A stretch of DNA of 10,809 bases, from the IMG/VR virus record IMGVR_UViG_2648501437_000027, one strand, 5' to 3'. A program made the translations under genes and the position numbers. The stretch comes from a virus. Taxonomy: Duplodnaviria; Heunggongvirae; Uroviricota; Caudoviricetes. The notes beneath the pieces were generated by a model. That model saw nothing but the letters and a program-made list of their open reading frames with translations. It made no database searches and had not been told where the DNA came from. Below are positions 593-10,809 of the stretch, piece by piece (position 1 is the stretch's first letter; every line of letters begins with the position of its first letter).

Positions 593-793
593 AGGGACCT
601 CCCTTAACGTGGTGCTGGTTCTATTTTAAGTTGTACTGGCTCAGACTCCAACAGCCACTCCGCCTTGAGCAAAAAGTTAGCGCAGGAGTGCATGTTTAAA
701 CCTAATTGCTTTAAATATAGTGATTCGGATAACCAGATGACTTGTGTTTATATATGATAACGGTAAAAATCTACTCTCTATGAGAATGTTGAT
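593..793. promoter_or_regulatory. AT-rich divergent intergenic region between ogr and the orphan gene; presumably carries promoter(s) for one or both
   Basis: About 200 bp of non-coding, AT-rich sequence between divergently oriented genes. No confident -35/-10 assignment could be made by eye. Confidence 0.3.
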
Positions 794-1954
794 GTGAAAA
801 TGGTCACCATGAAGATAACTAAGACAAATTTTGGTATAACTATTAATGATACTTTAATAACGGATTTTCGCGATGTAGTTAATGAAAGAGATTTTGTTTA
901 TAGTTACTTCATAAACAGAAATGGTAAAAATCAGTTCAGCCCTATTTGTTCATGCATGGATTGGATTACTGTTTCTGTACGCTATCTTATGAACATCCCT
1001 GAAATATCTGAAGACATTGATATTAAAGCTATGCAGATTTATACTATTATATCATCAATCGATATAATAGTGGAAGCGGTGCGGCAACTCCATCGTATTA
1101 TTGAAAGTGACAATAATTTTATGAAATGGCCCTTTAAAGGCTCTGTTGATATTTTTAAGGGTAAAATACATTATCTTTCGCATGAGGATGATGACTCTTA
1201 TTTTAAGAGTATTCGCGCTATTTTTGGTGCTCACCCTACGAATCTTAAAAATAACTACGGGGAGAGATTGTTTGCGAGTTGGCCTCATTTTTATGCACTT
1301 AATAATAATGATTTTACTATAAGTCTTTATAATAACAAACCCGGTGTGGATGATGTTATTTTTGGTATTAAATTTAACGAGCTTATCTCATATGTTGAAA
1401 GTAGGTATAAATATCTAGAAAAACTAATGGACTCTATAGTGGTAATTCGTAACAACCATTACGATGTTTTGTCCGCGCAAGTTATATCATCCACCGATAA
1501 CATTTATGATGAGTTGAGGCTGCTTCTTTCAGAAGTCGCTATACGAGGTAATAATGATTATTACCGAATGCAATTGGAAGAGTTAATTCATTTGTTTGAT
1601 GGTTGTGTTAAAGAGAAGCATCTTCAAGATGAAGTAAATGAGTTTTTGAGTAAACTCTATCCGATCGTTTTAGAGATTAGAAATAATCTTCAGAAAATGA
1701 ATATTGAAGATTTAACAACTACTTGTGATGTGATTATTTCGAGGCTTCCTACAGGTGAATTAAATTATATTCTTCAGAAGATGTTTTCTTGTCTCCACTC
1801 AGATAGGGATGATCCATTGAAGGATTATTACTTTGATACTTTAAATAAATATACTGAAGGTTGGTATAATTTTTGCTCTGCAGATAATGATAGTACAACC
1901 TTGCTAAAACTTAGAATGATGCTGTATCGGTATCATCAGCAAAAACTTGATTAA
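794..1954 (+). CDS. Hypothetical protein, 386 aa, AT-rich orphan/cargo gene inserted between D and ogr; candidate anti-phage defence (abortive-infection-like) or other moron; family unknown
   Basis: Long uninterrupted ORF (GTG at 794; in-frame ATGs at 800 and 809 are plausible true starts) ending TAA at 1952-1954. GC content by eye is roughly 30% versus well over 50% in the flanking phage genes. N/I/K/Y/D-rich protein with no signal peptide, TM segment or P-loop seen. One weak R-x5-H match (SIRAIFGAHP). Confidence 0.75.
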   Translation: MKMVTMKITKTNFGITINDTLITDFRDVVNERDFVYSYFINRNGKNQFSPICSCMDWITVSVRYLMNIPEISEDIDIKAMQIYTIISSIDIIVEAVRQLHRIIESDNNFMKWPFKGSVDIFKGKIHYLSHEDDDSYFKSIRAIFGAHPTNLKNNYGERLFASWPHFYALNNNDFTISLYNNKPGVDDVIFGIKFNELISYVESRYKYLEKLMDSIVVIRNNHYDVLSAQVISSTDNIYDELRLLLSEVAIRGNNDYYRMQLEELIHLFDGCVKEKHLQDEVNEFLSKLYPIVLEIRNNLQKMNIEDLTTTCDVIISRLPTGELNYILQKMFSCLHSDRDDPLKDYYFDTLNKYTEGWYNFCSADNDSTTLLKLRMMLYRYHQQKLD

Positions 1955-2030
1955 CGATGAGAAATAATGTCAGCGGATTTTTTATAATCTTGCATATCAA
2001 TTCATCGTTAGGTTTATGATGCCTATTTCG

Positions 2031-2069
2031 GGCACAGAGCAAACAGGTATATTATGTTGGCTCTGTGCT
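2031..2069. repeat. Inverted repeat (9-bp stem GCACAGAGC/GCTCTGTGC, about 19-nt loop) in the convergent gap between the orphan gene and gene D; possible D 3' stem-loop or insertion scar
   Basis: Seen directly: 2032-2040 pairs with 2060-2068. No adjacent U-tract on either strand, so not a canonical intrinsic terminator. Confidence 0.35.
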
Positions 2070-2084
2070 GTATCTTCCCACCAT

Positions 2085-3191
2085 TTAGGTCTGCGCAATC
2101 CATTCAGGGATTTTTGTTTCAAGTTCAAGCTGCGTGGTATAACCGCTGTTATCAATGGTGTGCTCGGCTTTTGCAATAATCCAGTCCTGATTATCAATCT
2201 CGCTTTTAAATCCTGTTACCGTGCCATGCATTTCGGGGTAGAGTTCTGCACGTCCACGCGCCAGCGTGATGGAAAATGATGCGGCTCCGCGTTGTAGTTG
2301 CTGCCACTTTGCCGCCGCTGCGCGTCTTGCTGCCTGCTCGTTCTGATAAGTCTTGCGTAACACAAACACATTGCCTTCCGCGCCTTCCATATAATCACCT
2401 TCACGGCTGCTGCTTTTCTCCTTTTTGGGTTTTGGCGGTTTGCGGCGTTTCACGCTGACTTTTTTCTTTTTCCCGTAATTAAGATCAAGCCAGTAAGCGC
2501 GTACCCCCGTATACGCCTCGCGGTCAGCAATGCGGAACTGATGGCGATCGCCGCTGCTGCGTGTGATGGCGAACGATGGCAACGGCTGGCCCTGTGCGTT
2601 CACGCCACCGCCTGGCATGATGAATAACAGATTGCCGCTTTTTACCGTGGTGATTGCGCCCAGCATTTCCGCCATGCGCGTAAGGAAGGACATGTCGCTT
2701 TCTTCGGTCTGGTCGGCGTGGTCGATTTCGATATCCATCAGCATTTCGCTGATTTGCGGTTTCAGACCATACCGATGAGCGATGGCGGATACCACACGCT
2801 CAACGGTCACATCATGCCAGGACACCTCACGTTTAACGTTAAATTCATCCCGAAAATCTGCGCTTCTGGCCGAAACAGTCAGCCTGTCCGGCGGTCCTTC
2901 GTGAGCGATTTCATCAACAATGTAAGTGCCTTTTTCTGTCAGCGGTTCTCCTTTCCAGCCAATGAGAACCGTCAGGCGCGCGCCCCGTGGCGGTAGCTGC
3001 AACTGACCATCCGCATCATCCAGCGTGATGGTGAGCTGGTCCGCTTCAAATCCCCGGTTGTCGGTCAGTGACAGACTCATCAGGCGCTCTGCCACGCCGG
3101 ACAGCGTTTCCCCCTCCGCGAGAATATCAAAATCCGGCATTTTCACGGGGTCTGTGCTCTGACTGAGCAATTGCATGGTGGTGTCGGTCAT
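2085..3191 (-). CDS. D: P2 gpD-like tail/baseplate hub protein (late control gene D), 368 aa
   Basis: Translation (…LSLTDNRGFEADQLTITLDDADGQLQLPPRGARLTVLIGWKG…) resembles P2 gpD. Start placed at ATG 3191 (MTDTTMQLL…), which has a GGGAGGG SD about 7 nt upstream on the minus strand; the longer ORF to 3323 lacks an RBS. Confidence 0.85.
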   Translation of the reverse strand: MTDTTMQLLSQSTDPVKMPDFDILAEGETLSGVAERLMSLSLTDNRGFEADQLTITLDDADGQLQLPPRGARLTVLIGWKGEPLTEKGTYIVDEIAHEGPPDRLTVSARSADFRDEFNVKREVSWHDVTVERVVSAIAHRYGLKPQISEMLMDIEIDHADQTEESDMSFLTRMAEMLGAITTVKSGNLLFIMPGGGVNAQGQPLPSFAITRSSGDRHQFRIADREAYTGVRAYWLDLNYGKKKKVSVKRRKPPKPKKEKSSSREGDYMEGAEGNVFVLRKTYQNEQAARRAAAAKWQQLQRGAASFSITLARGRAELYPEMHGTVTGFKSEIDNQDWIIAKAEHTIDNSGYTTQLELETKIPEWIAQT

Positions 3192-3348
3192 CTGTTCCCT
3201 CCCTGTGCGGCATGGTCGCATGTGCGTGCGGAGGGGGTTACTGCTTTTTGTTGTCGCCGTGGCGGGAGAACGGCGCAGGGGTGAGATTACGCGCGTGGTG
3301 GGTGATGATTGTTGCCGAATCATTTAACGGATACAAGGGGCTGAAGCT

Positions 3349-4533
3349 ATGAGTGAAACTCGTTTTCATGGTGCCCGTGTTACGGAAAATACCGACCTGG
3401 TAACAGCGATTAATGATGTTGATTCCAGTGTTATCGGTATCGTGGCAACGGCGGATGATGCGGACGCGAAGCTGTTCCCGCTGAACAAGCCCACACTGCT
3501 GACCCGCGTCAATGACGTGCTGGGAAAATGCGGGACAACGGGGACGCTTTATCGTGCGCTTAAGGCCATCGCAGACCAGGTGAGCACAAAGGTGATCGTC
3601 GTTCGCGTGGCTGAACACAAAGAAGAAGGCGGTAAGACGCAGGATCAACTGGTTATCGGTGGTTCTGAATCTGACGGCAGCTATACGGGGATGTATGCGC
3701 TGCTTGTTGCAGAGCAGGATGAAAGCATCGGATACCGTCCGCGTATTCTGGCCGCGCCGGAGCTGGACACGGAGGCGGTGACAAAATCCCTGTGCGTGAT
3801 TGCGGGTAAGCTGCGCGCGTTTGTGTATGCCTCATGTCACGGCTGTAACACGATGGCTGAGGCGATTACCTACCGCCAGAAATTCAACGAACGTGAAGTG
3901 ATGCTCTTATGGCCGGACTTCATCGCCTACAACCCAAAAAGTGGCGAAAACGAAACGTTCCCCGCGCCTGCCTATGCGTGCGGCCTTCGTGCGTACATTG
4001 ACCATGAGCAGGGATGGCACAAATCACTGTCCAACGTTCCGGTCAAAAATGTGCTGGGAATGTCCAGGCATGTGTTCTGGTCGTTGCAGGCCGAAGACAG
4101 TGATGCCAACAGCCTCAATAACAAAGAAATCACGACCATTATTCGTCGCAACGGGTTCCGCTTCTGGGGCAACCGCACACCGGAAACGAACGCCTACATC
4201 TTTGAGGTGTATACCCGAACCGCACAGGTGCTGGCTGATTCAATTGCGGAAGCGCAGTTTGAAACCATCGACAGTCCACTGACGCCTGCGAACGTGAAAG
4301 ATGTTATCAGTGCCATCAGGGCAAAACTGGATTCGCTGGTGACAGCCGGGAAACTGATTGGGGCGTCGTGCTGGTATGACGTGGTGGATAACGGCACCAC
4401 GGATTTACGTCAGGGGCGTGTGCGTATTCGCTACAAATATACGCCCGTTCCGCCACTGGAAGACATGGAGCTTTACCAGACGTTTACTGATGAATACTTT
4501 GGCCCCGCATTTGCGGTGCTGGGAGGTGCCTGA
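3349..4533 (+). CDS. FI: Contractile tail sheath protein (P2 FI-like), 394 aa
   Basis: Length and multiple conserved blocks (FPLNKP, KLRAF, WPDF, EQGWHK-LSNV, RRNGFRFWGNRT, YTRTAQV, YTPVPPLE) match the P2 FI sheath family. RBS upstream of ATG 3349. Confidence 0.9.
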   Translation: MSETRFHGARVTENTDLVTAINDVDSSVIGIVATADDADAKLFPLNKPTLLTRVNDVLGKCGTTGTLYRALKAIADQVSTKVIVVRVAEHKEEGGKTQDQLVIGGSESDGSYTGMYALLVAEQDESIGYRPRILAAPELDTEAVTKSLCVIAGKLRAFVYASCHGCNTMAEAITYRQKFNEREVMLLWPDFIAYNPKSGENETFPAPAYACGLRAYIDHEQGWHKSLSNVPVKNVLGMSRHVFWSLQAEDSDANSLNNKEITTIIRRNGFRFWGNRTPETNAYIFEVYTRTAQVLADSIAEAQFETIDSPLTPANVKDVISAIRAKLDSLVTAGKLIGASCWYDVVDNGTTDLRQGRVRIRYKYTPVPPLEDMELYQTFTDEYFGPAFAVLGGA

Positions 4534-5045
4534 TGGCTGTGCCAAAACATCTTCGCTTTTTTACGCTGTTTGTGGATGGTGAAAACGAAGTGGGTAAGGT
4601 GACGTCCGTCACTCTGCCTAAACTGACGCGCAAAACCGACAGCTACCGGGGTGGTGGCATGATGGGTGCGGTAAGTATTGATCTCGGTCTGGACGACTCC
4701 GCGCTTGATGCGAGCTTTGTCATGGGGGGCGCAGTTCGTGCGCTGTTCCTTAAGTATGGCGGCACGATTGACGGCACGCTGCTGCGTTTTGCGGGTGAAT
4801 ACTACACCGATGCAGAAAGCGACCTGTATGAAGCCGAAATGCGCGGACGTGTGACGGAAATTGATATGGGGGAAGCCAAACAGGGCGAAGCCACATCACA
4901 CACTTACGCTGTCAAAAACACCTACTACAAGCTGAGCGTTAACGATCGCCCGCTGTGGGAAATCGACCTGTTGAACCACATCTACCGGAAGGACGGCAAG
5001 GACATTGTGCCTGACCGTATCCGTTCCGCGCTTGGGCTTGGCTGA
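4533..5045 (+). CDS. FII: Tail tube protein (P2 FII-like), 170 aa
   Basis: ATG overlaps the FI stop (TGATG) and is preceded by GGAGGT. Size and position immediately after the sheath gene are as in P2 FII. Confidence 0.88.
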   Translation: MAVPKHLRFFTLFVDGENEVGKVTSVTLPKLTRKTDSYRGGGMMGAVSIDLGLDDSALDASFVMGGAVRALFLKYGGTIDGTLLRFAGEYYTDAESDLYEAEMRGRVTEIDMGEAKQGEATSHTYAVKNTYYKLSVNDRPLWEIDLLNHIYRKDGKDIVPDRIRSALGLG

Positions 5046-5100
5046 TAAGTAATATGCAGGCGGCGCAGTGCGTCGCCTCTGACTGAAAAGGAGACAACTG

Positions 5101-5475
5101 ATGAAAGACATCGATACTGAAACCCGGAATAACACCGTGGCGGATGATGTGACGGCAGGTGAGGATATGGCTGTCGAACGTGGCGTAAAACTGACCCGAC
5201 CAATTGAGCGTGGTGGCGAAAAAATCACGTATGTGGAGATCACCGGGGCTATTGAGCAGGCTGGATCCCTGCGTGGTCTGTCGCTGTCTGATGTGCTGAA
5301 TCTGAAAGCGGATACCATGTTCACGCTGTTGCCTCGCGTGACCTCGCCACGACTGGATGAAGTGATGATTAAAAAAATGTCGTCACGCGATTTTATTCAG
5401 TTGTGCGCTGTGGCTGTAAATTTTATGAGCGAGCCAGACTCTGGCGCGAAGAGCGTGCAGGAGACGGCAGCGTAA
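5101..5475 (+). CDS. E: Tail assembly chaperone gpE (zero-frame product), 124 aa
   Basis: ORF preceded by AAGGAG, positioned between tube and tape-measure genes, with an overlapping downstream -1 frame exactly as in the P2 E/E' and lambda G/GT paradigm. Confidence 0.8.
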   Translation: MKDIDTETRNNTVADDVTAGEDMAVERGVKLTRPIERGGEKITYVEITGAIEQAGSLRGLSLSDVLNLKADTMFTLLPRVTSPRLDEVMIKKMSSRDFIQLCAVAVNFMSEPDSGAKSVQETAA

Positions 5476-5639
5476 TCACCCTGGTGTGCTTTGAGCACAT
5501 CGAAGATCTGGTGGCGGATATTGCCGCCATTTTTAACTGGTCGCCCGCCGAAATCTTCATGATGACGCCCGGCGAAGTGGTTAGCTGGCGTGAGCGGGCG
5601 GCACTTCGCAGCGGGAATGCAGACAATGAAGACTCTTGA
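5373..5639 (+). CDS. E' extension: -1 frame read after a programmed frameshift in E, giving an E+E' fusion of about 179 aa
   Basis: The -1 frame is closed by TAA at 5370-5372 and open from 5373 to TGA 5637-5639, so any shift must occur within the A7 run at 5371-5377. The E' frame ends 12 nt after the likely T start. Confidence 0.65.
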   Translation, partial: KNVVTRFYSVVRCGCKFYERARLWREERAGDGSVITLVCFEHIEDLVADIAAIFNWSPAEIFMMTPGEVVSWRERAALRSGNADNEDS

Positions 5640-8439
5640 TATCCGGGTCGCTTTCAGCGCCGTTGACAGGCTGACCCGGCCTGCCGAAAACGCCCGCCGC
5701 CTGATGGGGCAGTTTGGTGACTCCATCCAGCGAACGCAGGGGGCGATCAAAAATCTCGAGCGTCAGGCGCGTTCATTTGAGCGCGCCCGTGACGCTGTCA
5801 GTAAAGCGGATGCTGGCATATTGAAAGCGCGACGCCAGCTTAACGCCCTTAATCAGTTACAACACACGGGTACAGTGCTCAGCGAAAAACAACAAAAGCT
5901 GATGCAGCAGTTAAGCACCCGGCTTGAACGCCTGAATGAATCGCGCACACGGGAGATTCAGAAAATGCGGGAGCTTGGCGGAGAGCTGAAACGCCACGGC
6001 ATTTCCCTGACAGGCAGCGATAACACCATTCAACAGGCCATCAGACGCACCGAACAGTACAACAACCAGCTTGAACGCGAACGGCAGGCGCTTGCGCGTG
6101 TAACGCGGGCGCGTGAGCGGTATTCGCGCGCGCAGGAAACCGCGGGAAAACTGAAAACAGGTGGTGCACTGGCAACAGGTGCGGCAGCGGCGGGCGGCTA
6201 TGCTGCCGGGCGTTTTTTGCAGCCCGCGATTGGGTTCGGGAAAGAGATGTCCCGCGTTCAGGCACTGACGCGAATCGACAAAAACAGCCCACAGTTTAAG
6301 GCGCTGCGTGAGCAGGCGTTAAAACTTGGCTCTGAAACGCAGTTCACCGCTGGAGATGCCGCCAGTGGACAGGCATTTCTTGCAATGGCTGGTTTTACTC
6401 CGCAGGCCATTCAGGCTGCGCTTCCCGGCGTGCTGAGCATGGCAACGGCTGGCGGTATGGATCTCGGCGAGACGGCGGATATTGGCTCAAATATCCTGAC
6501 GCAGTTCGGCCTCTCTGCTGACCAGATGGACCGGGTTGGCGACACGCTTACAGCGGCGTTTACCCGTACCAACACTGACCTTCGCGCGCTGGGCGAAACC
6601 ATGAAATATGCAGGTCCGGTGGCGGGTAAGCTGGGAATATCGCTGGAGCAGGCCGCTGCGATGGCGGGCGTGCTGGCGAATATGGGCATCAGAGGGAGTG
6701 ATGCCGGGACGGCAATGCGCGCCAGCCTGGCTCGTCTGGCATCACCGCCAAAGGCGGCAGCAGAGGCGCTGAAAGAGCTGGGTGTGGCTGTCTCTGACGC
6801 GAACGGCAAAATGCGCCCGATGGAGGATGTACTGGCCGACCTTTATAAAGCCACCCGCAAATACGGGGAAGTTGACCGGGTATCGTTCTTTAAGGACATT
6901 GCCGGAGAAGAGGCTTTCACATCGTTTATGGCGCTCGTTGATGCAGCGGGTGACGGCTCCTTACCCAAACTGAGAAAAGAACTTGAAGGCGCGCGCGGTG
7001 AGGCTGAACGCACAGCAAAGGTTATGGCCAACAACCTTGACGGTGATCTGAAATCACTCGGCAGTGCATGGGAAGGGTTGCGCATCCGCATTGCAGATCT
7101 GATTGACGGTCCGCTGCGTTCTGTCACGCAGTGGCTCACGCGGGTGGTATCAAAGGTGACGGCGCTGGCGCAGGCCCATCCGGCACTGACGCGCCAGCTA
7201 CTGATTGCAGGTGGGGCATTGCTGGCGATGACTGCAACGGTCGGCTCGTTGTCGTTGGCTATTGGTGTGCTTGCTGGCCCGCTGGCAAAACTGCGTCTTG
7301 GCTTTTCCCTCCTGACCGGATCAATGAATGCTGTCAGGCTCCTGCCAGCACTATGGGGAATGGTGACGGGTTCCGTTTCGTTACTGGGGGGCGCTATCGG
7401 GGCGCTGTTCAGCCCGGTCGGATTGATTGCTGCTGCGTTTGTGGCTGCGGCGGTTCTCATCTGGAAATACTGGGAACCCATCAAGGCGTTTTATGCAGGG
7501 GTGTTCAGTGGGATTATGGAACGGCTGGCTCCGTTGCGCGAAACCTTTGAACGGTTCGGTCCAGTTTTTGATGTCGTGCGCGATGGGATTATTCAGGTCT
7601 TTAACTGGTTTAAATCGCTGCTGTCACCGATGGAGTCCAGCAAGGAAACGCTGGATAAATGTACCAGTGCTGGCGAGGTATTCGGCAGGGTACTCGGTGG
7701 AGCGATAGAGCTTGTCCTGACGCCAACAAAAGCATTGATGGATTCACTGGCGTGGATACTTGAAAAGCTCGGAGTGCTTCCGGATGAAGCGGAACGGGCG
7801 AGAAAGAAAATAGAGAACGCTTCAAAGGCTCCTGTAATGTGGGAATGGGATCCGGTTCTCAAGAAAATGGTTCAGAAACCATGGACTCCCGGCCCGGCCC
7901 CGTCAGATAAGGTCGACGACAAAAAAGGCGATAAACCCAGAGACAACAAACCGCTCACAGACAACAATACCGGTACGCTACGCAGACTCAGCAAAATTGC
8001 TGATAACACAGGTAAGCTGGTTGATGAGACGAAAAAACGCATTGGCCCCGGCGATATTGTCTTTAAGAACCTGCCCCGCGCACTTGCTGTTCGTGGGGAG
8101 TGGCAGGAGCGGAAGATTGCGCAGGTCAGTAAGCCTGCCCCCGCAATTACTATCACACCCGTGGTTCCGGCTCCGCTGCCTCCGGCGCTGGTCCCTGTTG
8201 TTGCGGCCAGCTCCCGCCCGGTGGCGGAGGCTATACGATCGCCAGTGGCATCAGTTCCTGCAACTTCCCGTAACCGGGAGCCTGTTGCCTCCGGATTTGG
8301 CGGTGAAATTCATGTTCATCTGCATAACGTTGTTACACAGAATCCCCGCGAACTGGCGAAACTGGTTGGCGAAATGGTCAGGGCAGAAATGGAACGGCGC
8401 GCCCGTGCCGGGCGTGGCAGTTTTTACGATAAAGATTGA
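5626..8439 (+). CDS. T: Tail tape measure protein (P2 gpT-like), about 937-949 aa depending on start
   Basis: Very long ORF following E/E', with a coiled-coil-like N-terminal part, a central Ala/Gly-rich region, hydrophobic segments (LLIAGGALLAMTATVGSLSLAIGVLAG) and a Pro/Ala-rich C-terminal region, typical of tape measure proteins. Start ambiguous among GTG 5590, ATG 5617 and ATG 5626. Confidence 0.88.
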   Translation: MKTLDIRVAFSAVDRLTRPAENARRLMGQFGDSIQRTQGAIKNLERQARSFERARDAVSKADAGILKARRQLNALNQLQHTGTVLSEKQQKLMQQLSTRLERLNESRTREIQKMRELGGELKRHGISLTGSDNTIQQAIRRTEQYNNQLERERQALARVTRARERYSRAQETAGKLKTGGALATGAAAAGGYAAGRFLQPAIGFGKEMSRVQALTRIDKNSPQFKALREQALKLGSETQFTAGDAASGQAFLAMAGFTPQAIQAALPGVLSMATAGGMDLGETADIGSNILTQFGLSADQMDRVGDTLTAAFTRTNTDLRALGETMKYAGPVAGKLGISLEQAAAMAGVLANMGIRGSDAGTAMRASLARLASPPKAAAEALKELGVAVSDANGKMRPMEDVLADLYKATRKYGEVDRVSFFKDIAGEEAFTSFMALVDAAGDGSLPKLRKELEGARGEAERTAKVMANNLDGDLKSLGSAWEGLRIRIADLIDGPLRSVTQWLTRVVSKVTALAQAHPALTRQLLIAGGALLAMTATVGSLSLAIGVLAGPLAKLRLGFSLLTGSMNAVRLLPALWGMVTGSVSLLGGAIGALFSPVGLIAAAFVAAAVLIWKYWEPIKAFYAGVFSGIMERLAPLRETFERFGPVFDVVRDGIIQVFNWFKSLLSPMESSKETLDKCTSAGEVFGRVLGGAIELVLTPTKALMDSLAWILEKLGVLPDEAERARKKIENASKAPVMWEWDPVLKKMVQKPWTPGPAPSDKVDDKKGDKPRDNKPLTDNNTGTLRRLSKIADNTGKLVDETKKRIGPGDIVFKNLPRALAVRGEWQERKIAQVSKPAPAITITPVVPAPLPPALVPVVAASSRPVAEAIRSPVASVPATSRNREPVASGFGGEIHVHLHNVVTQNPRELAKLVGEMVRAEMERRARAGRGSFYDKD

Positions 8440-8451
8440 GGAGTCATGGCC

Positions 8452-8940
8452 ATGATGATGATCTATGGCATGTTTGTTTTTGAGCTGCGCACGCTGCCGC
8501 ATCAGCAGTTACAGCAAAACAAAAGCTGGCGGCATGTGAAAAATGAACGCGTTAACCGTTCAGCAAGCTGGCAGTATATCGGCGCAGGTGATGATCGCAT
8601 CGTGCTTTCCGGCGTGCTTTATCCTGAAATTACAGGTGGCGAAGTGTCGCTTTCGTTGCTGACCACGCAGGCATATACAGGACGCCCCTGGCCTCTGATT
8701 GATGGTGTCGGGCAGATTTACGGCATGTATGTACTGACTGAAACGAATACGACCCGTTCCGAGTTTGATCGCTACGGCAAGGCGAAAAAGATAGAGTTTT
8801 CACTGACCCTTGAACGCTGTGATGAGGATTTGCGGGAGCGCCTGCAATCCTCATCGTTCAGCGATATGCTGTCCGGCTTCAAAGATAAGGTCACATCATC
8901 CCTTAACAGCGCGGCCAGCTCCGTTAAAGGGCTGTTCTGA
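8452..8940 (+). CDS. U: Tail protein gpU-like (tail terminator/tail completion), about 162 aa
   Basis: Begins MMMIYGMFVFEL…, resembling the P2 gpU N-terminus as I recall it, and sits directly after T. GAGGAG lies 8 nt upstream of ATG 8452; the earlier ATG at 8446 is too close to the SD. Confidence 0.82.
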   Translation: MMMIYGMFVFELRTLPHQQLQQNKSWRHVKNERVNRSASWQYIGAGDDRIVLSGVLYPEITGGEVSLSLLTTQAYTGRPWPLIDGVGQIYGMYVLTETNTTRSEFDRYGKAKKIEFSLTLERCDEDLRERLQSSSFSDMLSGFKDKVTSSLNSAASSVKGLF

Positions 8941-8951
8941 TTTAACACAAA

Positions 8952-8986
8952 AACCGCTAATGGCCAGATTAGCGGTTATTTTGTTT
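8952..8986. terminator. Bidirectional intrinsic terminator between convergent U and the invertase gene
   Basis: Perfect 10-bp stem AACCGCTAAT (8952-8961) / ATTAGCGGTT (8968-8977) with a 6-nt loop, followed by ATTTTGTTT on the plus strand and by TTTTTGTGTT on the minus strand. The invertase stop codon (8971-8969) lies inside the stem. Confidence 0.65.
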
Positions 8987-9559
8987 ACTCTTCTCAATTG
9001 TTCCACTTGATTCTCCTGCGGGGTGGTAACGATAAATTGTCGATATACCAATGCTGTAAATTATTGCCAGTTGTTTTCTGTCGTGACCGTTTTTAATCAG
9101 CCTTGCTATTTGCTCATGCTGTTCTTTTGTCAGCTTCGGTCGACGTCCGCCTGTGCGCCCCCGTGCGCGCGCTGCCGCCAGTCCGGCCAGTGTACGTTCA
9201 ACAATTAATTCACGTTCCATTTCAGCCAGGGCACCCATCACGTGGAAGAAAAAACGCCCCATTGGAGAAGATGTATCTATGCTGTCGGTCAGACTACGAA
9301 AATTAATCCCTCGCTCCCGTAGTTCCCCGACGAGAGAAATCAGATGTTTCATGCTTCGCCCGAGGCGATCCAGTTTCCAGACAACCAGCGTGTCACCTTG
9401 TTGAAGGCGCTTTAAAGCGCGTTTTAATCCCGGTCGGTCAGTCTTTGTCCCGCTTAATTTATCTTCAAATATTTGTTCACATCCTGCACAAACAAGAGCG
9501 TTTCGTTGCAGGTCTGTATTCTGGTCATTTGTTGATACCCTTACATAGCCAATCAGCAC
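8969..9559 (-). CDS. Serine DNA invertase of the Gin/Cin/Pin/Hin family, about 196 aa
   Basis: Translation LIGYVRVSTNDQNTDLQRNAL…VVWKLDRLGRSMKHL… is near-identical in its N-terminal catalytic region to Mu Gin as I recall it, including the catalytic Ser in VRVSTNDQ. Start placed at GTG 9559 (aligns with the Gin N-terminus MLIGYVRVS), with GGGAGA SD upstream; the ORF-track start at 9583 is also GTG. Confidence 0.9.
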   Translation of the reverse strand: MLIGYVRVSTNDQNTDLQRNALVCAGCEQIFEDKLSGTKTDRPGLKRALKRLQQGDTLVVWKLDRLGRSMKHLISLVGELRERGINFRSLTDSIDTSSPMGRFFFHVMGALAEMERELIVERTLAGLAAARARGRTGGRRPKLTKEQHEQIARLIKNGHDRKQLAIIYSIGISTIYRYHPAGESSGTIEKSKQNNR

Positions 9560-9613
9560 GCTGAATCTCCCGTCCAAAAGCACAAATCATGCCATGCAGG
9601 CCAGAAACCGCCA

Positions 9614-9639: not shown

Positions 9640-10809
9640 ACGGTAAATCAGGCTTCTGGTGCATTACAGAAAAACCAGAACGGCGCAGATATTCCCGATA
9701 AAAAACTATTCCTGCGTAATATCGGCACAACAAATTCAACAACCATGTCTTTTAGTGGTGGTGCTGGATGGTTCAAACTGGCAACTGTAACAATGCCACA
9801 AGCCAGTTCCGTGGTTTACATAAGCCTGATTGGTGGCGCAGGGTATAACGTTGGCTCCTCGCATCAAGCAGGCATCTCTGAGCTGGTTCTGCGTGCAGGA
9901 AATGGGAATCCAAAAGGCATTACTGGTGCATTATGGCGACGGACATCGGTTGGATTTACTAATTTTGCATGGGTGAATACATCCGGTGATACCTATGATG
10001 TTTATGTTGAAATAGGTAATTACGCCACAGGTGTTAATATTCAGTGGGATTATACCAGTAACGCCAGCGTAACGATTCATACATCACCATCTTATACAGC
10101 GAATAAACCAACAGGTCTGACAGATGGAACTGTATATGTAATTTACAGTTCGCACATTAAACCGACTGCTGCTGAGGTTGGGGCGTTGTCATTATCTGGC
10201 GGTCAATTGAATGGTGCACTGGGCATCGGAACATCCAGTGCTCTTGGCGGTAACTCGATTGTTTTAGGAGATAACGATACCGGGTTTAAACAAGGTGGTG
10301 ATGGGGTGCTGGATGCTTATGCTAATGGTTCGCATGTATTCAGCTTTAGAAGTGGTTCAGCAATATCATTTAAGGGTATTCAGGCTGGGGAAAGTAAGCT
10401 ATTCACTCTTTCAAGTGCAAATAACTCTGCCTGTAATGCATCATTTAACTTGTGGGGAAATTCGTCAAGACCAACTGTTGCAGAGCTTGGTGATGATTCA
10501 GGCTGGCATTTCTATAGTCAGCGAAATACAGATAACTCAGTGATATTTGCTGTAAACGGTCAGATACAACCAAGCAACTGGGGTAACATTGATTCCCGCT
10601 ATGTGAGAGATATCAGACTTGGTTCACAGCAATATTATGGAGTGAACAACTGGCAAACATGGAATTTCCAGTGCCCTTCAGGTCATGTACTGTCTGGTAT
10701 AAATGTTCAGGATACAGGGTCCCACTCTGCCGATAATATAGCTGGCGTTTATTACAGACCTGTTCAAAAGTATATAAATGGCACCTGGTATAATGTAGCG
10801 AGCGTTTAA
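9622..10809 (+). CDS. Tail-fibre variable C-terminal segment (Sv'/H'-like), currently in the silent orientation; no start codon of its own
   Basis: The frame opens immediately after a TAA (9619-9621) inside the gix-like site and runs to TAA at 10807-10809. Gly/Ser/Asn/Thr-rich with a …YYRP…NGTWYNV… C-terminus typical of enterobacterial phage tail-fibre tips. The first ATG (9745) has no RBS, consistent with expression only after fusion to a constant N-terminal part upon inversion. Confidence 0.75.
   Translation, partial: NLGLQETVNQASGALQKNQNGADIPDKKLFLRNIGTTNSTTMSFSGGAGWFKLATVTMPQASSVVYISLIGGAGYNVGSSHQAGISELVLRAGNGNPKGITGALWRRTSVGFTNFAWVNTSGDTYDVYVEIGNYATGVNIQWDYTSNASVTIHTSPSYTANKPTGLTDGTVYVIYSSHIKPTAAEVGALSLSGGQLNGALGIGTSSALGGNSIVLGDNDTGFKQGGDGVLDAYANGSHVFSFRSGSAISFKGIQAGESKLFTLSSANNSACNASFNLWGNSSRPTVAELGDDSGWHFYSQRNTDNSVIFAVNGQIQPSNWGNIDSRYVRDIRLGSQQYYGVNNWQTWNFQCPSGHVLSGINVQDTGSHSADNIAGVYYRPVQKYINGTWYNVASV

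Follow-up and report, generated by a model that had tools for sequence, protein, structure and literature searches.

What is a single AT-rich gene doing between ogr and gene D of a P2-like prophage, on the strand opposite to both? The question is raised by a stretch of 10,809 nucleotides from a virus of the Caudoviricetes (IMG/VR record IMGVR_UViG_2648501437_000027), which is referred to here, at its full length, as the window. A reading of the letters made without database searches (the sequence-only reading) had singled out a 386-residue open reading frame (ORF) at 794-1954 (+ strand), called gene X below, as a horizontally acquired accessory gene, or moron, and as a candidate for an undescribed defense gene. 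We propose, with a probability of about 0.6, that the mobile cargo cassette filling the variable ogr-D slot has X as its single gene, and that the product of X is most likely a stand-alone protein of an unnamed family that defends against phages or other mobile elements in the manner set out below. That X is a defense gene is in our judgment likely, and it is probably of the abortive-infection type and a member of a new family.

A foreign cassette in the ogr-D slot

The base composition of the insert is clearly foreign. In a sliding-window analysis, the GC content was 0.29-0.35 in all 200-nt windows between ~700 and ~2000, compared with 0.50-0.53 before and 0.54-0.59 after this region, and the breaks at ~700 and ~2000 were sharp. 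The cassette as delimited by the GC break and by comparison with empty sites (634-2084, 1,451 bp, no strand assigned) has a GC content of 0.333, and the X ORF one of 0.320, with 0.287 at third codon positions (GC3). The corresponding values are 0.514 for the left flank, 0.543 for D (GC3 0.58), and 0.553 for the FI-U genes (GC3 0.61 for FI). X is the sole gene of the cassette and lies on the strand opposite to ogr and D. The description of a low-GC segment with one opposite-strand ORF is therefore borne out, with a GC content of 0.33 (GC3 0.29 in X) against 0.51-0.55.

The slot is bordered on the left by ogr (332-592, - strand), the late-gene activator, which matches an ORF annotated in RefSeq as "ogr/Delta-like zinc finger family protein." Its right border is gene D (2085-3185, - strand), which encodes the 366-residue tail/late control protein D and was assigned from its ORF, from the annotation in a related prophage (L094) and in phage P88, and from a comparison of boundaries. 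When the cassette ends were aligned with prophages that have an empty junction, the insertion point fell directly after TAAGTTG at window position 633; the empty junction reads ...TATTCTAAGTTG|CTCACTCTGTTT..., and the window sequence departs from it immediately after this heptamer. The columns at 593-633 (- strand) are invariant across empty and occupied junctions and represent the native ogr leader. The insert had originally been placed at 593-2084; its right edge stands, and its left edge moves to 634, where the foreign DNA starts.

The use of this slot was surveyed with a query in which ogr was joined straight to D in silico and which was searched against 5,426 complete Escherichia coli genomes, 1,456 of which contained such a D/ogr pair. 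The window insert, at 98.8-99.7% nucleotide identity, was present in 20 of the 5,426 genomes. Scoring of the junction in 60 evenly spaced records showed that it was empty in 30, with D and ogr ~45 nt apart; ogr was more than 1.27 kb from D in 14, a single record had a 0.9-kb insert, which gives roughly a quarter with some cargo, and the remaining ones were truncated or disrupted by insertion sequences. The alternative cargoes are mutually unrelated single genes at the same insertion point as X. They encode a 201-residue hypothetical protein (O157:H7; L091, 1954-2559), a DUF3800 protein accompanied by ISKpn26 (O104:H4; L092, 3724-4893), a 500-residue PIN-domain protein (O111:H8; L093, 3260-4762), and a 379-residue SEC-C/YecA-family protein (L094, 3449-4588). 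The slot is thus empty or otherwise filled in related prophages, as expected of hotspot cargo. With about half of the sampled slots empty, other cargo elsewhere, and near-identical family copies on integrative and conjugative elements (ICEs), plasmids, and phages across genera, the proposal of a horizontally acquired moron at a prophage junction holds.

X has a foreign composition, lies on the strand opposite to its neighbors, and may form its own transcription unit; in these respects it resembles the defense morons of P2 (old, tin, and fun/Z) and the cargoes of the P2/P4 hotspots (Rousset et al. 2022), which also occupy variable slots between conserved phage genes and differ among prophages. 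X differs from these in lying at ogr-D instead of A-Q or G-FI, and its protein shows no relationship to Old, Tin, Fun/Z, or the PADLOC models. In the hotspot literature searched, ogr is not mentioned, and the ogr-D slot looks like an under-explored hotspot.

The left end of the cassette (634-680, no strand) is a TACTGGCTCAGACTCCAACAGCCAGTCCGCTTTGAGCG-like segment of ~45 nt, which we call the left handle and which was recognized by alignment with the PIN, YecA, and 201-residue cargo loci. It is common to otherwise unrelated cargoes at the junction, as are parts of a right handle, which occupies 2019-2084 in the window. A hairpin (2032-2068, no strand) with 9-bp arms (GCACAGAGC/GCTCTGTGC) and a 19-nt loop lies toward the inside of this shared right handle; no run of T follows it, and a homologous segment is present in the aligned YecA and PIN cassettes. 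The right handle of the PIN cassette ends in a second TAAGTTG, so that this repeat flanks the PIN cassette, and the YecA and 201-residue cassettes carry variant forms of the terminal TAAGTTG. The window cassette is not flanked by the repeat, and its right handle stops ~40 nt short of the full length. The handles may be recombination sites or may contain the ogr promoter or a terminator, and their sharing, as judged from the alignments, is consistent with cargo exchange through recombination between related prophages.

A passenger cassette resembling a transposon or a miniature inverted-repeat transposable element was also considered. Terminal inverted repeats were no better than those of shuffled sequences in three of the four cassettes, an apparent symmetry of the ends (CTCAGAC/GTCTGAG and CCGCTTTG/CAAAGCGG) was discarded when it did not beat shuffles, and no flanking repeats or target-site duplication of the insert were found in the window. 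The transposon-like reading was rejected because inverted repeats at the ends lacked significance and the window insert has no flanking repeats. A search with Rfam detected no known RNA family in the window or around the insert.

Relatives of gene X and their genomic settings

The assignment of X (386 residues from GTG 794) draws on the ORF list, RefSeq, homologs, and an AlphaFold2 model. According to the RefSeq annotation of identical copies, the probable start is ATG 800, which yields 384 residues; the RefSeq entries for X are WP_231362158.1, WP_001556999.1, and WP_244406420.1. Computation confirmed that the protein has no P-loop motif, no signal peptide, and no hydrophobic segment of transmembrane grade (maximum 19-residue Kyte-Doolittle mean 1.36), all as first read from the translation. 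Nor could X be assigned to a known family, since searches of Pfam, NCBIfam, PADLOC v2, and PHROGs gave no meaningful match. The same was true of 62 relatives scanned singly, and a sequence-profile search of the Protein Data Bank returned only spurious hemagglutinin and coiled-coil matches. For the most divergent members of the family, the libraries matched nothing except a DUF6577 fusion in one lineage.

At 90% identity, homologs of X form 123 clusters, all named "hypothetical," and their E-values are as low as 1e-254. At 50% identity the family has 688 representatives, 230 of them below 1e-30. Since homolog clusters reach 1e-254 and so many representatives remain at 50% clustering, X is not a chance ORF. 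Among species-representative genomes, members occur in Enterobacterales, Vibrionales, Alteromonadales, Psychrobacter, and Marinomonas among the Gammaproteobacteria, and in Campylobacterota, Sphaerochaeta (Spirochaetota), many Bacillota, Mycoplasmatota, Kiritimatiellota, and Lentisphaerota beyond it. The family extends to free-living marine bacteria, anaerobic Bacillota, and metagenomes, with no common host niche, and nearly all members are 355-445 residues long. Phage phi458 carries a copy 72% identical to X, and a variant found on ICEs is at least 90% identical across ~8 genera, which include Edwardsiella, Pasteurella, Vibrio, Proteus, Shewanella, and Enterobacter. A 98% identical copy with a similar pattern of flanking ORFs lies in a contig assigned to the Gram-positive "Vagococcus sp. 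WN89Y" (L016; NZ_JBQPOM010000071.1), probably through contamination or mis-binning from an enterobacterial genome.

Rare fusions were also seen. In three proteins (P0057, P0077, and P0079), residues 1-250 form an N-terminal domain of ~250 residues that belongs to no known family (MKNQYFGDINDYRKYGLLR...) and in which the stretch ...LDPDNGLEVK... recalls PD-(D/E)xK. In Lentisphaerota, a fusion (L077, 7313-9139; P0229) carries DUF6577 at its C terminus (residues 405-587). Such domains could hint at a partner activity.

For a survey of neighborhoods, three genes on each side of 71 species-representative loci were clustered. No conserved partner gene or antitoxin was found, and no neighbor was common to more than 4 of the 71 loci, from which we conclude that X travels, and presumably works, alone; this agrees with its earlier description as a single-gene unit. 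Restriction-modification (R-M) and other defense genes recur around it. In Paraclostridium, the order is hsdM-hsdS-X-hsdR on one strand with gaps of 11-19 nt, and X is embedded in or adjacent to type I R-M genes in four further loci of the 71, from Acholeplasmataceae, Pseudogracilibacillus, Lachnospiraceae, and Sphaerochaeta (the R-M-associated loci include L071, L085, L088, and L040/L103). At least five lineages therefore have type I R-M operons as a setting for X. Relatives in marine TARA contigs also lie within or beside type I R-M genes, and one array reads FRG-HsdR-GmrSD-190aa-X. On an E. coli plasmid, a relative adjoins a type II endonuclease, a C5 methyltransferase, and pinE, and on IncF/IncI-type plasmids such as pSC138, a relative adjoins AbiH-family and PIN genes; in pSC138 (L003, 3495-5556), the AbiH-family gene and a gene for a 366-residue PIN-domain protein form a small defense island beside the X homolog. 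A Klebsiella island combines a relative with two resolvases, an AAA_13/SMC ATPase, and Mrr. Other relatives occupy a variable region of an SXT-like ICE, with traN on one side and ssb/bet/exo on the other, the last position before the integrase of a Pantoea prophage, and prophage ends or tail-fiber/invertase regions, and many X loci are small islets amid housekeeping genes. In bulk Pfam scans, the most recurrent neighbor families included the restriction-related GmrSD_N, ResIII, HSDR_N, SWI2_SNF2, and YhcG/DUF1016 (PDC-S02), as well as recombinases, with metallo-beta-lactamase-fold and HAD-type hydrolases also recurrent.

PrrC/RloC genes likewise lie among or next to hsd genes of the same orientation, and PrrC has been cited as the archetype of embedded systems (Payne et al. 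2024). That study demonstrated experimentally that genes embedded in Hma defense systems are often new defenses, extended the prediction to BREX, DISARM, and type I R-M, and considered even a single embedded instance worthy of follow-up. X is not among the 145 candidates of Payne et al. that were added to PADLOC. The embedding is a property of X homologs and not of the window copy, and most X copies are not embedded in R-M operons. X also differs from PrrC/RloC in having no ABC-ATPase/P-loop domain, no ATPase match in Pfam, and no sequence similarity to them. The best functional analogy for X is nevertheless that of a latent nuclease that backs up restriction, as in PrrC/RloC.

An independent prediction comes from the DefensePredictor study (Science 2026), which lists two relatives of X as "predicted novel defense gene." One is WP_001459672.1, of the pSC138 type (39% identity to X), with a mean log-odds of 12.4 in the table of 3,000 E. 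coli strains, and the other is WP_000784327.1 (71% identity), with a mean of 8.2 in the table of 69 strains; the stringent cutoff of the study is 4. Neither had an HHblits or Foldseek link to known defense proteins, and neither is among the 118 units that were cloned. By our own count, the cloned units that protected were 14 of 20 at a log-odds of at least 10 and 14 of 26 at 8-10. The SEC-C/YecA cargo of the ogr-D slot is also listed as a predicted novel defense gene (log-odds 7.1), as is the PIN neighbor on pSC138 (WP_031619804.1, log-odds 12.6). Among the table rows covered, X's own accessions do not appear. An identity of X with the validated DS-38/HEP2 was considered and dismissed, since that is an unrelated HEPN and zinc-finger protein, and the similarly sized REPB/DS-36 (388 residues) and PDP7 (380 residues) showed no sign of kinship with X, a judgment that does not extend to their sequences. 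A literature search by the accessions of X-family proteins found no paper. The family is unnamed and not described, as had been supposed, with the correction that relatives already appear as computational defense predictions in the supplementary tables of this 2025/2026 study.

Predicted fold, conserved residues, and proposed mechanism

The AlphaFold2 model of X, built from the 62-sequence alignment, is confident (predicted local distance difference test score (pLDDT) 91.4, predicted template modeling score (pTM) 0.85), and we found no specific solved structural relative of it. The N-terminal domain (residues 15-232; 836-1489, + strand) consists of five long helices with a three-stranded sheet after the fourth, and it folds equally well when modeled alone (pLDDT 93.0, pTM 0.90). 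The C-terminal domain (residues 233-386; 1490-1951, + strand), delimited by secondary structure and pLDDT, is helical and more variable. The strongest conservation falls within the N-terminal domain, where four motifs stand out: CSCMDW (52-57), ISSIDxxxE (86-94), DDxYFxxIRxxFGAHPxN (132-150), and FASWP (160-164). The third contains the R141-x5-H147 element (RAIFGAH; codons 1214-1234, + strand) that the sequence-only reading had flagged, and both residues are invariant in the 62 sequences. In a set of 27 divergent members, 20-36% identical to X, W57, D90, D133, F144, G145, H147, and R251 are strictly invariant, and C52, S53, D56, K138, N150, S162, and Y325 are at least 90% conserved. R141 is conserved at the same level and is replaced by Lys in two Mycoplasmatota members (L061 and L071). 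The C-terminal domain contributes the invariant R251 and the conserved Q300, Y325, and K329.

The possibility of a HEPN-like RNase had been raised together with that of defense. Of this pair, the candidate defense role gained strong support from R-M embedding, from defense islands, and from the DefensePredictor scores of two relatives. For HEPN, the R-x5-H motif proved to be conserved throughout the family, and an Rx4-6H element is characteristic of HEPN domains; similarity to HEPN profiles did not emerge. X had no match to the HEPN-clan Pfam models at E ≤ 1, the 62 members had none at E ≤ 0.1, NCBIfam and PADLOC gave none, and hhalign of the X alignment with the HEPN domain of the validated DS-38 returned a probability of 1.8%. 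The residue after the Arg is Ala or Ser where Asn, Asp, or His is usual, and the N-terminal helical bundle, which is compatible with HEPN, scored no better in structural comparisons with HEPN domains than with generic bundles. Compared with the single-protein HEPN defenses (HEC-08 of Payne et al. 2024; DS-38, DS-11, and DS-29; PD-T7-4), X has no profile or hhalign similarity and no zinc fingers or CBS domain, and its invariant Asp residues and the β-sheet insert after the motif are atypical. D90 and D133 are not expected for metal-independent HEPN RNase chemistry with a dimeric composite site. The invariant Asp pair and His, with an Arg from the second domain, would fit a metal-dependent hydrolase equally well. 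A HEPN-like RNase is the leading candidate for the chemistry of X, held with odds distinctly below even.

We propose the following working model. X would be expressed in the lysogen from the AT-rich region upstream of it, as a soluble two-domain protein. The N-terminal helical-bundle domain would be the effector, with invariant His147, Asp90, and Asp133 and near-invariant Arg141 at its site and Arg251 supplied by the second domain. The effector is most plausibly a nuclease that would stay inactive until infection, and the more variable C-terminal helical domain may detect a phage signal or act as a gate for the effector. Once activated, X might halt the infected cell's growth or break down the nucleic acid of the phage, by a logic like that of PrrC/RloC or of single-protein HEPN defenses. 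The division into effector and sensor or gate is suggested by the pattern of conservation, and we infer the nuclease chemistry.

The lactococcal proteins of the Abi_2 type (AbiD/AbiF) and AbiH are soluble, AT-rich, single-gene abortive-infection proteins of ~340-370 residues that are carried on mobile elements, and Abi_2 is largely helical. X resembles them in size, AT-richness, solubility, and single-gene mobile carriage, and it differs in that none of the 62 members matched Abi_2, AbiH, or another Abi model in Pfam or PADLOC.

A bolder extension, which we regard as speculative and rather doubtful, is that X founds a phylum-spanning family of single-protein abortive-infection enzymes. In this extension the catalytic domain would be a non-HEPN helical-bundle hydrolase of a kind not recognized before, with an Asp-Asp-His(-Arg) site that the C-terminal domain completes. 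In P88/P2-like prophages, the ogr-D junction would then be a further exchangeable defense slot, and its cargoes (X and the PIN, DUF3800, and SEC-C proteins) would be largely uncharacterized immune genes.

Competing roles and the surrounding prophage

Several observations weigh against a defense role for X. Despite the inclusion of the 145 embedding-derived candidates, PADLOC v2 gave no family at E ≤ 1 for X, and we found no published experiment on any member of the X family. In many of the 71 loci, the nearest neighbors are housekeeping genes or unknowns, and recognizable defense genes lie within three genes in a minority. Simple scans detected neither a σ70 consensus promoter nor an intrinsic terminator for X, and expression in the lysogen is for that reason an assumption of the model.

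Other roles can be weighed against the same data. X could be a counter-defense or inter-element competition factor, one that blocks or modulates restriction or a rival element and thereby serves its carrier and not the host. Family members are indeed carried by phages, plasmids, and ICEs, the variable regions of which also hold anti-defense genes, and proximity to R-M genes could reflect regulation or antagonism as well as cooperation. Against this, in four lineages, Paraclostridium among them, an hsd operon that looks intact contains or directly adjoins a co-directional copy of X; such an arrangement is easier to reconcile with a co-expressed partner than with an inhibitor of the host's own system. 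DefensePredictor also scores the relatives of X as defensive. Anti-restriction proteins are known as small acidic DNA mimics, which X, with ~370 residues and an enzyme-like invariant set of His, Asp, and Arg, does not resemble, and we consider this role improbable. The same low probability applies to a selfish toxin or addiction module that stabilizes its element, as the adjacent hok may do, with the antidote being an RNA or contained within X itself. A single AT-rich mobile gene with an enzyme-like conserved site would suit such a module, a Hok/Gef toxin is already next door in the prophage, and many Abi proteins and toxins can hardly be separated by sequence context. The absence of a conserved small ORF or partner beside X and of any Rfam RNA in the window speaks against it, as does the location of many X copies in chromosomal islets and R-M operons, outside elements that need stabilizing.

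A role in lysogenic conversion or regulation outside genetic conflict, for example in host physiology, biofilm formation, or virulence, appears very unlikely. It has in its favor that the morons of P2-like prophages are not all for defense and that phi458, with its 72% identical copy, has been investigated for its influence on biofilm and virulence, although not at the level of the X homolog. The family is, by contrast, ecologically broad with no shared niche, X has no signal peptide or transmembrane segment, and this role offers no obvious explanation for the R-M embedding. Finally, nothing beyond its position between two late genes favors X as a conserved structural or regulatory part of P2-like phages, or as a spurious or decaying ORF. 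A survey of the junction, which the sequence-only reading had suggested as a check, revealed that X is not conserved there: it is present in 20 of the ~1,456 E. coli genomes with a D/ogr pair, is absent from the viable phage P88, and occurs outside phages. Members from different phyla agree in length and motifs, and X could be modeled with confidence. Because of its distribution, a structural or spurious reading is effectively refuted. We retain the interpretation of X as a probable stand-alone defense protein.

If X protects against phages, a widespread new family that extends from Proteobacteria to Bacillota and Mycoplasmatota would join the bacterial immune repertoire. A family with no recognizable domain or close solved structure is also where new biochemistry, and possibly tools, tend to arise. 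X offers a clean test of two converging predictors, embedding in restriction operons and a protein-language-model score, and if it had no phenotype it would be a useful counter-example to both. It further points to the ogr-D junction as a place to seek immune genes in P2- and P88-like prophages. X is a well-supported and cheap-to-test candidate, yet one among many such predictions.

The prophage that carries X had been read against the P2 map, from which it departs: FI-FII-E-T-U (3349-8940, + strand) runs opposite to the D/ogr side (2085-3323, - strand). This divergent arrangement is normal in Escherichia phage P88 and in five of five annotated E. coli prophages examined, and an "inversion" of FI-U was accordingly dropped as an anomaly. 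Phage P88 has the same layout, with hok beyond ogr, and its D-ogr junction is empty. Based on this layout, the prophage is P88-like (Peduoviridae, Xuanwuvirus), and its invertase shares 97% identity with the P88 enzyme. Since FI-U is divergent from D, the 163-nt region between D and FI must contain a separate promoter for D. The D ORF is open as far as 3323 (412 codons), and the protein ends in ..EWIAQT* in the window and in ..EWIAETE* in empty-site prophages, so that the window D is one codon shorter. In many related prophages, RefSeq calls D as a 262-266-residue "VgrG/Pvc8 family" coding sequence with a small pseudo-ORF (L001, 7493-8334, and the equivalents in L091-L093 and L095), whereas D has 366 residues in P88 and in strain TW08637; the short form is likely an artifact of start-site annotation and not a truncation.

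Beyond ogr, at the end of the prophage as in P88, lies a gene for a 46-residue toxin of the Hok/Gef family (MSQKSLTAITFCVTAILIIWMLHGSLCEIRMSFWGAEFAAFLQCKQ; 1-141, - strand), and no hok/sok-type RNA was detected at the gathering score of Rfam. At the other side, a DNA invertase gene of the Pin/Gin type (8969-9583, - strand) lies between U and a tail-fiber segment (9745-10809, + strand) that continues past the window end, and the two presumably form an invertible host-range switch. A hairpin with 23-nt arms (8939-8990) lies between U and the invertase gene and resembles a bidirectional terminator.

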